Of a DNA stretch of 60,072 nt, positions 15,001 to 21,000 are shown piece by piece. Source of the DNA: Escherichia coli (GTDB taxonomy: Bacteria > Pseudomonadota > Gammaproteobacteria > Enterobacterales > Enterobacteriaceae). The stretch lies in NCBI RefSeq assembly GCF_017348835.2, contig NZ_CP072314.1; one strand, written 5' to 3'. Numbering within the stretch: position 1 is the stretch's first letter; the number at the start of each line of letters is the position of its first letter. Made by a program: the position numbers.

Positions 15001-18000
15001 TCAGCACCACGGCAAAAACGCATTCACTGTCCGGCACGTCTGTATCCAGTACATCGCGGATGATTTCTTTAACAGTACAGTACATGTTCTCGTCTCCTTT
15101 ACAGGGGCGGCATTGCCGCCCCGTCCGTTAATCAGTCCAGTGCCGCGTAAATCGCGTTGCATTCAGGGTGAAATTCGATGTGACGCCACAACTGCGCATC
15201 GCGCATCCGGTAAAGCTGGGTCAGTCCCGCATCCCCGCTGTCGTGGTACAGCCACAACTGGCGGTTAATCACAAGGGAAGTCAGAATGATGCCTGCGGCA
15301 TCAGCACTCACGGTACGGTCAAACCAGTTTGCACCGTTCACCATGTGGAAACGGTCGCCATCCGGCATCATGTAACCGCCACCGTCCGGCAGGCGGATGA
15401 AGTGCCAGAAACCTCCCTGATATTCCGGCATCATTTGTTTCGCCAGCGCGTATACAGACGCTTCGGCATACAGAAAATCCAGGCCAAACAGGTAAGGCAG
15501 AAAAGACAGACGGTCGCACTCTTCAACGTTCAGAGTGACAGGTTTCGCATACTGCATGGGATTTCCTCCGTTGTTCACATATTCCGCGACACCGGGCGGT
15601 GCCGTGCCTCCATAAAAGCCGGGCGATAAGGCGGGGATGCAGGGGAGCAAGGGAAGCCGCAGCCTGACGCACTCGGCTGACGGGAGTTGGAGGGTGATAC
15701 CGCGAAATCTGAGCGGGTGAACGACCGGAAAATCACGGCAGACGGGAAGGAGGGACCGGGTGACCGCAGCGGCGAAGCGTACCCTTGCATCAACGCCAGC
15801 CCGGCTAAGATGGAGGCACGGCACAGCCCGCACACGACGCTGAGGCCACATAACTGAGATGTCTACTGTATGCTATTAACAAATGTCTCATAACAGCGAG
15901 ATGAATACTTGGGAGTTATCGCTCAAGATAATGGGACAATATGTAGCATACAGTAGCTTACTGAAGCTTCGGATTACGTTTGATGATATTAAACGCGATG
16001 TCCCTGCCACTCCTCATTTCCTGATATTCCAGATAACCAATTTCTTCCAGCTGCTTTAGAGCTTTCTTAATGGTGGCATTCTGCAGTGCAGTTCTGGATG
16101 TAAGGTTGAGACGTTCGCGAAAACGCTTAATACTAACTGGAGCAGGATTTGTGGGCAGACCTTCCAAATAGAGATACAGAGCCTGAGCAGACTCCTTACG
16201 AGCCAGGCTTTTTAGCGCTTTTAGCTTGAGCAGGACTTTATACTCACTGGCGTAAAGATCTTTTAAAGACATACTGGGTGTAAGCAGAACAAGATCATTA
16301 CCAATGTCTATTGTGGACTCCCCCATGAGTTGCACCATCTGCGTCTTCTCTGTTGGTTTCCCGGAGTCTTTCGAAAATTCGACAATTGTGGACATAATCT
16401 TCTTTATCGAGTCTTTCAGGCGAGTGCGAAGTTCCTGTTTCATCCTCCCCCGTGGGAATCCGCAGCGATGCGCAAATTCGCTGAAAGGTATCACGATTTT
16501 TCCTTCTTTGGTGATCGGATGATCACTGTCTGTCAGAACGGAAATTATGCCAACCCAAACTTTAAAATCAGTGTCCATATCAAGTCGGGGACCACTAATA
16601 ATGACCTTCTCGAATCCCTCAGAGCTGTAGAGCGAAAGCGTATTAAAATCTTTCGAAGCATCAACGGTATTGCGGGTAATTTTAGCTTTATCGGTCCCTT
16701 TAAGAGTCGGGACAAAAACACCAAGGCGCATCAACGGAACTACCTGAACACTGGACTCACTTGTGGATATAAGCGTGAGCTCTTCTCCCGTTCGCTTGTT
16801 AATTTCCTTGATATTCAGGAATTGTTCATTGATTTTATTAGACATTTTATTTCCCTGTTTAGTGTGAACAAAAAATATCTTAGTAGCTCACAGTAGACCT
16901 TATGGTAGCACATAGTAGACCTTTTGTAGCACTCAATAGATATTATGTCGCATACAATAGACATTATGTAGCACACAGTAGACATTAATCATCTATGAGA
17001 CCAGTAACGGAGCGGCCTGCAGCGATCGGGGATCTTCTAGGATCTCTAAGGGTCTATATGGATATATTTATTGGATCTAGCCAGTGGAAAAAACTAAATC
17101 AAAATGTCGCATACAGTAGACTTTACCTAATCCGCCGAAAAACCCTGTCCTTCAGAGCAGAGCGGATATCAACTCACAGGGTTATGCACCGGTTCTGTGG
17201 ATAACACGCATCTGTTTTGTTCGCCAGAACAATCACCTGGCATGGCAGCGTAAAATTCAGCTTGCGGAATGGAAAATATCTTAAATTATACTGTATATAT
17301 AAACAGGTATTTAAAGAAGTATACCATGATCCTTTTTGTTCCAGCGGCACCTGAACCAGAACTATCTACCGCACCACTTTTCACCGAACGTTGCCCAGCA
17401 GGTTTTCCGTCACCGGCCGCAGACTACACCGAAGACGAACTGGATCTGAATGCCTACTGTATCCGACGTCCGGCTGCAACTTTCTTTGTCCGGGCCATAG
17501 GTGATTCGATGCAGAATATGGGGTTGCACTCCAGTGATCTGATGGTGGTCGATAAAGCTGAAAAACCACTGCAGGGGGACATCGTTATTGCTGAAATTGA
17601 CGACGAGTTTACTGTCAAACGCCTGCAGCTTAAGCCCCGTATTGCCCTGCTGCCGATGAATCCAGCCTACCCCACCCTCTATCCGGAAGATCTGCAGATT
17701 TTCGGGGTAGTGACGGCATTCATACACAAGACGCGTGAGGTACGCTGATGTTTGCGCTCGCTGATGTGAATTCATTTTATGCCAGCTGCGAGAAAGTATT
17801 TCGACCTGATTTGCGAAACAAGCCGGTTGTGGTACTCAGTAACAATGATGGTTGCGTTATCGCCCGTTCAAAAGAAGCGAAGTTGCTGGGTATCAAAATG
17901 GGGGTGCCGTGGTTTCAACTGAAGAAGGCGGAATTCTCTGAGCAGATCATCGTGTTCTCAAGCAATTACGAGCTGTACGCGTCCATGTCTAACAGGGTGA

Positions 18001-21000
18001 TGACTCACCTAGAAGAGCTGGCGCCACGTGTGGAACAGTACAGCATCGATGAGATGTTTCTCGATATCCGTGGTATAGACAACTGCATCGACTATGAGGA
18101 CTTTGGGCAGCAGCTACGCGAACACGTGCGCTCAGGAACGGGGCTGACAATAGGTGTCGGGATGGGGCCAACCAAAACGCTGGCTAAAAGCGCGCAATGG
18201 GCGTCCAAGGAATGGCCACAATTCGGTGGTGTGCTTGCCCTGACATCACACAATCCGAAACGAACGGAGAAACTGCTTTCACTGCAGCTGGCGCGCGCGA
18301 ACCCCGTATTTATCCGGAAGAATTTCAACGTTGTACTGGAGAGAACGGTCCGGGAACTCAACGGAGAAAGCTGTATTGAACCGCCCCGGGTTTCCTGGAG
18401 AGTGTTTTATCTGTGAACTCAGGCTGCCAGATCATTATTTCCGATGGAAGCATAATAAGCTTTTTCTGCTTCTGCCGGAGGAATATGGCCCAGCCTTTCC
18501 AGCAATCGTCGATTGTTATACCAGTCCACCCACGTGAGTGTGGCCAGTTCCACTTCTGTCCGGTTTTTCCAGCTCTTACGGTGTATTACCTCCGCTTTGT
18601 AAAGACCATTGATGCTCTCAGCCATCGCGTTGTCATACGAGTCGCCAGTACTCCCTGTTGATGCCAGTAATCCGGCTTCCTTAAGCCGCTGCGTGTAGGC
18701 CAGCGATACATACTGAGAACCTTTATCACTGTGATGGATTGTGCCGGACGGCCGACGGGCCCACAACGCCTGCTCCAGTGCATCCAGCACGAATGTTGTT
18801 TCCATGGATGATGAGACCTGCCATCCCACGATGTATCCGGCGAACACATCAATGATGAACGCCACATAAACGAAGCCCTGCCATGTGCTTACCCAGGTAA
18901 AATCAGCCACCCACAACTGGTCTGGACGTTCTGCCACGAACTGACGGTTTACGCGGTCGCATGCGGCAACGGCTTTCCGGCTGACGGTAGTGCGGACCTT
19001 TTTACCCCGGAGAACACCGGCAAGTCCCATAACCGCCATGAGACGTGCCACAGTGCATCTGGCCACTCTGATACCTTCCCGTAACAACTGACGCCAGACT
19101 TTACGCACACCGTATACCTTGTGATTTTCATCGTATACGCGCTGTATCTCTTTCTTCAGCCAGTCATCGCGCTGCGCACGGGCACTGCGTTTATCCGGAT
19201 AATGTCGCTGTTGCTGACAGTGGTAATACGTTGACGGGGCAATATGCAGTTCGCTGCATACCGGTCCGACCCCGTACTGCTCACGCAGCTTATCCAGCAG
19301 TGGCATTATTTTTTCCAGAGGCGGTCGAACTCCGCCTTCGCAAAATAAGCGGAAGCCTGGCGAAGGATATCGTTACTGCGGCGCAGTTCACGATTTTCAC
19401 GTTCCAGCTCTTTCAGACGCTGACGTTCAGCGGTGGTGAGTCCACCATCACCACTCCCGGTATCCCGCTCATGCTGGCGAACCCAGACACGCAGAGTCTC
19501 CGGCGTACAGCCAATCTTTGGGGCAATGGAACAAACTGCCGCCCACTGTGAGTCATATTCATCCTGACTTTCCAGAACCATACGAATCGCCCGCTGACGG
19601 ACTTCGGGGGAAAAACGAGTATTTTTAGTCATCCTGTTTACCTCTTTCTCAGGGAGTTTAGTCTCCAGGATTTCCGGGGCGGTTCAGTATTTCGCTTGAA
19701 GAAGCTCCCCCGCCGAAACAGCAGATTGTCTGCAGCAGGTCTTTTGGGGAGCGTATCACAACGTATGAAGCCCTGCGTCAGGCAGTCTGTCAGTACGCTG
19801 AGCGTGCTGCGGAAAAGCTGCGCGGCGAACGGCAGTTCTGCAGGCATATTGTCGTATTTGTGAAAACAATGAGCCCTACTACGGTAATCTGGCCAGTGAA
19901 AAGCTGCTCATCCCCACGCAGGATACATGGGACATCATTGCCGCTGCCGTCAAAGCCCTGGACAGGATCTGGGTGAATGGCCACCGCTATGTAAGGGCAG
20001 GCTGCATGCTGAACGATTTTACGCCGACCGGAGTTTCACAGTTGAATCTGTTTGATGATACTCTGCCCCGAAGCAACAGTAATCAATTGATGAAAGTCGT
20101 GGACGGTATTAACCATTCTGGACTTGGGAAAGTGTGGTTTGCGGGGCGAGGCATAGCTCCTGAGTGGCAAATGAAGCGCGAAATGTTGTCACCAGCATAT
20201 ACGACACGCCGGACTGACCTCCCGGTGGCAATGATACGATGACCTTTGACATCCTCCCCGTCCAGAAGGACGGGGCTTTATGGCACATTAGGTAAGCAAA
20301 GATTTCGCATGCGAAATCTTTGCTTTAATTACGGCGGTGCAACTGAATAAGTGCCTGAGAAGGACGATAGTGCTGTTTTGCCCATCGTCCATAATTATTA
20401 ACGGTCTCATACTGACGTTCTGCGGCACCATCACGGTAATACAGTATATGGAGAACCCCCTGTCGCTGCAGATAGTTGGCTACGGTTGTTACATTGTTGC
20501 GAACGAAGCGCATCTGGCTCTGGAAAGAATCAAGATCAACTCCGTCCTGTCCATCATCAAACGCATCGAGAATAAAAGCGATTAACGCTGAAGCGATAGA
20601 ACGCCTACCAGAGCCAGCAATACAAGCATCAAGCTCCTGAAAGGTCATCTGAATTTCCTGTTATAACGGTAGTGGGCATCTTCTTCTATTGCAGCCACAA
20701 ACCATCCTGTAGCAGTTTGCCTGTCTATACTATCAGGCAAGGATGCAACTAACAGTTCAAGTGAAAGTTTACGATTAGCTCTGAATATCAGTGCCGACAT
20801 CCCACACCATTCTTGATTACTCTCTGGCTTCCAGCCAATCTTGAGCATCATCGTTAATGCGGTCTGAGCCGCCCACAGAGGCGTTTCAGCGGGATTCGAT
20901 AACCATGATAATAAGGCTGCTCCAGGCACAGGTCTACTTCTTGTAACGTATCCAAGATTGATAGCAGCTTCTGTTAATGCAGCAGCTGCTTCGGATTGAG

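Follow-up and report, generated by a model that had tools for sequence, protein, structure and literature searches.

A stretch of 60,072 nucleotides from Escherichia coli (contig NZ_CP072314.1, assembly GCF_017348835.2; hereafter "the window", meaning this whole stretch) carries a damaged SOS mutagenesis operon of the samAB type, that is, a umuDC-like, Pol V-like system composed of a small autoproteolytic regulator gene (umuD/samA-like) and a Y-family polymerase gene (umuC/samB-like). The locus is very probably a neutrally decaying relic on a heavily degraded IncFIA-type virulence plasmid, in which the polymerase is dead and the UmuD-like gene may still be expressed. It belongs to a known family, of which it is a common kind of pseudogenised representative, and public databases annotate it already. 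An earlier interpretation made from the sequence alone (the sequence-only reading) described the operon as inactivated twice, by insertion of IS629 and by a frameshift; each element of that description is found where it was placed, and both of these lesions are real, but the polymerase gene has been hit three times, the event that was missed being a 78-bp in-frame deletion. The coordinates of all features are collected in Table 1.

The lesions were defined by aligning the window, with the insertion sequence (IS) removed, to the intact allele of plasmid pDEC5B-4 (L001; NZ_CP038392.1, from E. coli O55:H7), in which the same locus, in the same neighbourhood, contains an uninterrupted polymerase gene of 424 codons. 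In the pDEC5B-4 polymerase, none of the four Pfam domains is missing, and its score on the NCBIfam UmuC model NF002955 is 803 bits (cut-off 431); the accompanying UmuD has Gly70, which is replaced by serine in the window (G70S). Outside the indels, the window differs from pDEC5B-4 by nine substitutions over 3301 bp (about 99.6% identity), to which three length differences are added. The first of these is the 78-bp in-frame deletion, located after position 18279; in the intact allele, the deleted segment has the 9-bp sequence CACTGCAGC on both sides, and the loss would be a slippage-type deletion between these repeats. The deletion takes out 26 amino acids (PVEEIWGIGSRISRKLSTMGITTALQ) that correspond to the helix-hairpin-helix (HhH) motif of the thumb: Pfam IMS_HHH matches the intact protein but not the protein reconstructed from the window, and the segment encoded by the 78 bp aligns to the GIG/HhH segment of a solved structure of DNA polymerase IV (7yll). 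The second length difference is a 16-bp deletion after position 19867, which accounts for the earlier observation that the 3′ part of umuC changes frame; with the IS removed, the shifted frame would end at 19974-19976. The alleles of enterotoxigenic E. coli (ETEC) and Salmonella contain both deleted segments, as does SamB, which keeps SPFAV, the segment covering the 16-bp deletion. The opposite polarity, in which the 78-bp difference would be an insertion in the relatives, was rejected, as SamB, the ETEC and Salmonella alleles and the solved Pol IV structures all have the segment.

The third length difference marks the insertion of an IS629-type element of the IS3 family, 1310 bp in length, which interrupts the umuC-like gene at 18376/18377 and has the inverted ends TGAACCGCCCCGG.../...CCGGGGCGGTTCA. 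The sequence-only reading had recognized both the split of the overlapping umuC-like gene by IS629 and a flanking duplication written as (G)TAT; the split is upheld, and the duplication is present but can now be given as exactly 4 bp (GTAT), because removal of the IS leaves four extra bases relative to the intact allele. Target-site duplications of 3-4 bp have been reported for IS629 (PMC3271280). The corresponding empty site (...AGCTGTATTTCGC...) is seen in pDEC5B-4 and in a Logan contig (L018). The element is 99.2-99.4% identical to one found at 26-30 places in the chromosomes of Shiga toxin-producing E. coli, and among the ISs of O157, IS629 is reportedly the most abundant (PMC9943667). No database annotation naming the element IS629 was found; all read "IS3 family transposase", and the RefSeq label for the same IS in plasmid pPE164 is an IS3 family transposase with programmed frameshift. 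The name IS629 is nevertheless well supported by the length, the architecture, the copy-number pattern and the literature, an iso-form label such as IS1203 being equally possible. An IS-adjacent deletion of the type associated with the IS-excision enhancer protein (IEE) was rejected as the source of the 78-bp and 16-bp losses: they are separated from the IS ends by 97 bp and 181 bp, and IS-free copies have them as well. A second IS629-type copy in the window (48805-50114) is 99.5% identical, lies in the opposite orientation and is flanked by a 3-bp GTT duplication; each copy thus has its own duplication, which indicates that the two have not recombined with each other since insertion. As a separate observation, an IS629-like element truncates the samB-like gene of the pig ETEC plasmid pRHB27-C20_4 (CP057411.1, 4300-4330), where the IS end abuts CTGCAGCTGGCG, at most 2 bp from the right boundary of the 78-bp deletion of the window; this samB-like copy retains the 16 bp lost in the window. 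The closeness of the two positions could be a coincidence or could reflect a fragile repeat region.

As a result of these lesions, a full-length UmuC-type polymerase (IMS, HhH, little finger and DUF4113) is not encoded, the gene being left in three pieces with both deletions. The 5′ fragment, comprising palm and fingers, now reads as an open reading frame (ORF) of 222 amino acids (17748-18416), the stop codon of which lies within the IS. The middle fragment continues the frame of the 5′ fragment when the IS and one copy of GTAT are taken out. The 3′ fragment, with the QLNLF motif, the C-terminal DUF4113 domain and what remains of the little finger, carries the derived substitutions R321W and W415R. 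The largest umuC-like ORF scores 362 bits on NF002955, under the cut-off of 431 that the pDEC5B-4 protein clearly exceeds, and a tblastn search identified no second umuC-like copy elsewhere in the window, which disposes of the alternative of an intact copy there. The locus is therefore a pseudogene of the UmuC family with an irreversibly broken polymerase gene, in agreement with the earlier judgement that the Y-family polymerase is dead, and no translesion polymerase would be possible in its present form. It is highly improbable that the 222-residue N-terminal stub is itself functional or dominant-negative: it keeps the catalytic Asp6, Asp101 and Glu102, and the ATGA overlap couples its translation to that of umuD, but the thumb HhH, the little finger, the C-terminal domain and the QLNLF motif are all missing from it, and the window-specific change R121Q shows continuing drift.

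The same lesions recur in other assemblies. Plasmid pPE164 (NZ_CP114129.1), from a pig isolate, shows two single-nucleotide differences in 3301 bp and shares S70, the 78-bp deletion, the IS and the 16-bp deletion; at its locus, the RefSeq annotation gives umuD, an IS3-family transposase, two fragments of a UmuC pseudogene and one fragment with DUF4113. Among public assemblies, 61 indexed blocks contain exactly this S70 protein in the same open frame. All ten S70 contigs listed from these 61 blocks contain the 78-bp deletion, and the ten shown either read into the IS at the same GTAT or break exactly at the IS junction, as is usual for short-read assemblies at repeats; R121Q, which is private to the window in comparison with pPE164, is found in two of the S70 contigs listed. 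The G70 protein is indexed in 99 blocks, and all ten of the contigs listed for it are without the deletions and without the IS, nine having a 424-aa umuC and one an independent 1-nt frameshift. This distribution bears on the possibility that the polymerase is really intact and that its frameshift, or the remaining lesions, arose as errors of sequencing or assembly, which is extremely unlikely. The assembly of the window does have artefacts (skewed, unmatched flanks and a terminal overlap), and the near-identical pPE164 record contains many "frameshifted" calls; against this, the lesions consist of 16-bp and 78-bp deletions and a complete IS with its duplication rather than homopolymer slips, and because identical junctions for the deletions and the IS are found in pPE164, in several independent NCBI drafts and in ENA/Logan short-read contigs of unrelated samples, they are not sequencing errors.

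Public data also contain a form of this haplotype from which the IS is absent. Logan runs SRR33913862 and SRR25052532 have S70, both deletions and the clean empty site, and for one Logan IS-free contig, the alignment with the window allele without its IS extends over 3182 bp, with two mismatches and no gaps; the IS-free allele (contigs L018 and L030) has a frameshifted ORF of 304 amino acids. Because IS-free copies with both deletions exist, IS629 is placed last: G70S and both deletions would have come first, and insertion of IS629 was most likely the last event. Precise excision of IS629 is promoted by IEE in a transposase-dependent manner (bioRxiv 10.1101/2023.06.07.543989), and the element might accordingly be imagined as a reversible switch, in which IEE-promoted precise excision reactivates the polymerase. 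Such excision is documented, the IS looks intact and copies with an empty site exist, but those copies keep both deletions and encode the 304-aa frameshifted product without the HhH, so that excision cannot restore function; the probability of a switch is consequently close to nil. The locus is a well-resolved case of a plasmid translesion-polymerase operon decaying step by step, through a missense change, a deletion mediated by repeats, a small deletion and then an IS insertion, and an intermediate of this decay survives in public data.

The ETEC, Salmonella Newport and pSLT alleles served as outgroups to polarise the substitutions. Four could be assigned to the window lineage, and all of them are non-synonymous (G70S in umuD; R121Q, R321W and W415R in umuC), a pattern that, in small numbers, is what relaxed constraint would predict and that suggests such relaxation here. 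The umuD-like protein of 140 residues scores 144 bits on the NCBIfam model for the autoproteolytic subunit of Pol V (NF007621; cut-off 110) and aligns with E. coli UmuD (8gmt/1umu; 131 residues, end to end) and with LexA (8gms). Its Ala25-Gly26 aligns to the Cys24-Gly25 cleavage site of UmuD, and its Ser61 and Lys98 to the catalytic Ser60 and Lys97. The single protein difference from the pDEC5B-4 allele is G70S (codon AGT, 17533-17535). Of 120 relatives, taken as cluster representatives with identities down to 69%, 117 have Gly70; this glycine is also present in SamA, E. coli UmuD and E. coli LexA, and corresponds to the glycine of the "DGDL" motif in UmuD/LexA; the position is not absolutely invariant, as serine occurs in an unrelated UmuD-like cluster representative (P0106 from Logan, 143 aa, 71% identical) and cysteine in another (P0120). 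Because G70S affects a conserved glycine, the description of this gene as intact, as given in the sequence-only reading, holds for the reading frame only.

Upstream of this gene, the control region appears to be fully preserved. The LexA box matches the consensus TACTGTATATATATACAGTA at 17 of 20 positions with a complete CTGT-N8-ACAG core, and it is the sole match in the 60 kb at three or fewer mismatches (chance expectation 0.01); the CTGT-N8-ACAG motif itself occurs only here in the window. The well-formed SOS box noted earlier in front of the umuD-like gene is thereby borne out. The box is unchanged in pDEC5B-4 and in the ETEC plasmid and is one base off in the Salmonella Newport plasmid, the upstream region being nearly identical in the ETEC and Salmonella plasmids. 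In pSLT, the SOS box of samAB (GCTGTATATAAAAACAGGC) is nearly identical and is found at the equivalent place and distance. Every base of the promoter region, the SOS box and the ribosome-binding region is the same as in the intact pDEC5B-4 operon, and the one-base overlap of the umuD-like and umuC-like genes (17748, ATGA) is likewise common to the pDEC5B-4 allele. An alternative umuD start at ATG 17269, which would give a 159-aa ORF, was rejected, the exact product being unrecorded and SamA and all close relatives starting at the equivalent of 17326.

This organization suggests how the operon would work. In the intact ancestor, LexA would repress the operon through the box at 17289-17308, DNA damage would induce the UmuD-like protein together with a Y-family polymerase of 424 amino acids, and RecA-stimulated self-cleavage at Ala25-Gly26 would activate the UmuD-like protein. 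In the present form, LexA would be expected to bind the box still, and the unchanged control region would give rise to an SOS transcript; SOS induction would thus probably still yield the UmuD-like protein, now with S70, and the 222-aa polymerase stub, with transcription continuing antisense through IS629. The identity of the control region with that of pDEC5B-4 is consistent with the earlier proposal that the UmuD-like protein may still be expressed.

An alternative to neutral decay is that the orphan UmuD/SamA-like gene has been kept for a function without its polymerase, either modulating host Pol V, Pol IV or the replisome or titrating RecA* or ClpXP/Lon. E. coli UmuD has checkpoint and DinB-modulating roles, and UmuD2 acts on polymerases and the replisome. 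The frame, the cleavage site, the Ser-Lys dyad, the SOS box and the ribosome-binding region are all kept, and the same open frame is found throughout the 61 assembly blocks mentioned above. Nevertheless, the sole change in the protein, G70S, affects a conserved glycine and occurs only on the haplotype with the broken polymerase, which points to relaxed constraint, and the lineage is very young, with few substitutions. In addition, the chance that three disruptive events over 1698 bp all strike umuC is (1275/1698)^3 = 0.42; survival of the 423-bp frame is thus expected by chance and is not evidence of selection. A retained orphan function is therefore regarded as unlikely. More specific versions, in which the SOS promoter drives an orphan SamA-like protein (G70S, possibly cleavage-altered) that tunes host translesion polymerases or SOS timing, or in which damage-induced antisense transcription couples the IS629 transposase to SOS, are very unlikely, the open frame and the geometry being the two observations that speak for them.

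Three further points weigh against neutral decay of a still inducible relic or against the order of events given for it. The umuD-like frame is open in every copy seen, which could hint at retention, although chance suffices to account for it, as calculated above. The IS-free copies could be precise-excision revertants rather than representatives of the ancestor, which makes the order of events a probable one. Finally, a promoter scan found no sigma-70 consensus around the SOS box; by eye, only weak candidates can be recognized (e.g., TTGCGG at 17262-17267, a 19-nt spacer and TATACT), none of which was assigned.

The closest characterised relative of the locus is samAB of the Salmonella Typhimurium LT2 plasmid pSLT (NC_003277, PSLT055/PSLT054). 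SamA (140 aa) is 88% identical to the UmuD-like protein of the window, SamB (424 aa) is 88% identical to the intact pDEC5B-4 polymerase, and samAB is preceded by an equivalent SOS box just 5′ and stands, as here, beside plasmid partition genes on an F-type plasmid. The two differ in that samAB of pSLT is intact, whereas the samB counterpart in the window has two deletions and IS629 and the samA counterpart has G70S; in addition, the host of the window is E. coli and its backbone is IncFIA with a RepB-family initiator and iterons, unlike pSLT. According to one report (PMC7092418), samAB expressed at its natural level promotes mutagenesis inefficiently, which makes a neutral loss plausible.

The chromosomal umuDC operon of E. 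coli, encoding DNA polymerase V, has the same architecture, matches the same NCBIfam models and has a very similar LexA box; the window locus differs in being plasmid-borne, in belonging to the samAB sub-lineage, in its Ala-Gly rather than Cys-Gly cleavage site and in being non-functional. Other plasmid-borne, LexA-controlled umuDC homologues are mucAB (pKM101, Pol RI) and impCAB (TP110), of which mucAB is a strong mutator, in contrast to samAB, which is weak at natural levels (PMC7092418). Of the comparators named in the sequence-only reading, samAB rather than impCAB is the closest; only 17 nt separate the SOS box from the umuD start, which leaves no room for an impC-like gene between them. 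The rulB gene of pWW0, a hotspot for mobile-element insertion (PMC4542609), provides another plasmid Y-family polymerase gene disrupted by mobile DNA, as here; the rulB insertions are site-specific integron-like elements, whereas those in the E. coli plasmids are ordinary ISs at differing positions. ISEc62, IS421 and a 1-nt frameshift have independently disrupted other samB/umuC-like genes on E. coli plasmids (CP091406.1; NZ_CP159168.1, 4929-7285; contig L029, 3423-4779), and the loss of a Y-family polymerase gene may be a common, recurrent event among plasmids.

In annotation, the appropriate label for the locus is a samAB-type pseudogene with three lesions, not a working umuDC, and SOS mutator capacity should not be attributed to the plasmid. 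The haplotype S70/del78/del16, with or without IS629 at GTAT (del denoting the deletions of 78 and 16 bp), can conveniently serve as a lineage marker for this family of E. coli plasmids, which is associated with pigs and humans.

Table 1. Coordinates of the features of the samAB-type locus and its immediate surroundings in the window.
Feature	Position	Strand	Evidence or remark
Iterons, 21-22 bp: five in tandem; isolated sixth	16883-16989; 17106-17127		Between rep gene and SOS box
LexA (SOS) box TACTGTATATATAAACAGGT	17289-17308	+	17 nt 5′ of umuD-like start codon
Shine-Dalgarno-like AAGAAG, weak	17314-17319
umuD/samA-like gene, 140 aa, open frame	17326-17748	+	Pfam Peptidase_S24, E=3e-25
umuC/samB-like 5′ fragment (palm and fingers)	17748-18376	+	Pfam IMS, E=2.5e-40
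9-bp direct repeat CACTGCAGC, surviving copy, junction of 78-bp deletion	18280-18288	+
GTAT target-site duplication, left copy	18373-18376
IS629-type element (IS3 family), 1310 bp, appears intact	18377-19686	-	Pfam HTH_Tnp_1 and rve
IS orfB	18419-19306	-
ALIL frameshift pseudoknot	19235-19351		Rfam RF01497, 120 bits
IS orfA	19306-19632	-
GTAT target-site duplication, right copy	19687-19690
umuC/samB-like middle fragment (start of little-finger domain)	19687-19867	+	Pfam IMS_C positions 1-50; tblastn
Junction of 16-bp deletion (ATCGCCGTTTGCCGTA lost, frame shifted)	19867-19868	+
umuC/samB-like 3′ fragment, out of frame	19868-20242	+	Pfam IMS_C positions 60-109; DUF4113
GC-rich 8-bp hairpin CCCCGTCC-AGAA-GGACGGGG, then CTTTAT	20256-20275	+	14 nt past umuC stop

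The hairpin that follows the umuC-like gene has a predicted RNA folding energy of -20.9 kcal/mol (z = -2.48) and is followed by a short T-tract. A terminator scan downstream of umuC called no terminator, this hairpin included; it is possible that the hairpin is a weak terminator that serves the convergent gene as well.

The operon begins about 160 bp past the last of six iterons of 21-22 bp, which belong to a RepB-family replication gene on the minus strand (15958-16845), and lies 5′ of two small ORFs, which are followed by parB/parA. The same neighbourhood, with the rep gene and iterons, umuDC, two small ORFs and parB/parA, is found in pDEC5B-4. The plasmid as a whole is pPE164-like and, according to the pPE164 annotation, has lost most tra genes and contains many IS elements and pseudogenes. 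Coordinate matches to the same annotation place an espT-type gene for a type III effector at 28005-28589 and a gene for an autotransporter of 1327 amino acids at 30086-34069, which indicates a virulence plasmid of attaching-effacing-type E. coli. Relative to pPE164, the window adds R121Q at the operon and an inversion between ISEc31-like copies elsewhere on the plasmid.

The window also has several features that concern its assembly. A direct repeat of 2165 bp (99.95% identical) is found at 12714-14878 and 54298-56462, 41,584 bp apart, and the actual replicon is a circle of about 41.6 kb that resembles pPE164 and has been written with a terminal overlap. The flanks outside these repeats (1-12713 and 56463-60072) are strongly skewed in composition, with T at 41.6% in the left flank and G at only 10% in the right, and have almost no long ORFs, and megablast found no match for the left flank (1-12700) among 5,426 complete E. 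coli genomes. The flanks were also considered as corrupted copies of the plasmid, which was rejected because their identity to it, about 25%, is that of random sequence; they look like long-read or assembly junk rather than biology. Two identical, inverted ISEc31-like copies of 1260 bp are located at 24636-25895 and 45165-46424, and the segment of about 19 kb between them is inverted relative to pPE164, representing either a real isomer or an assembly choice.

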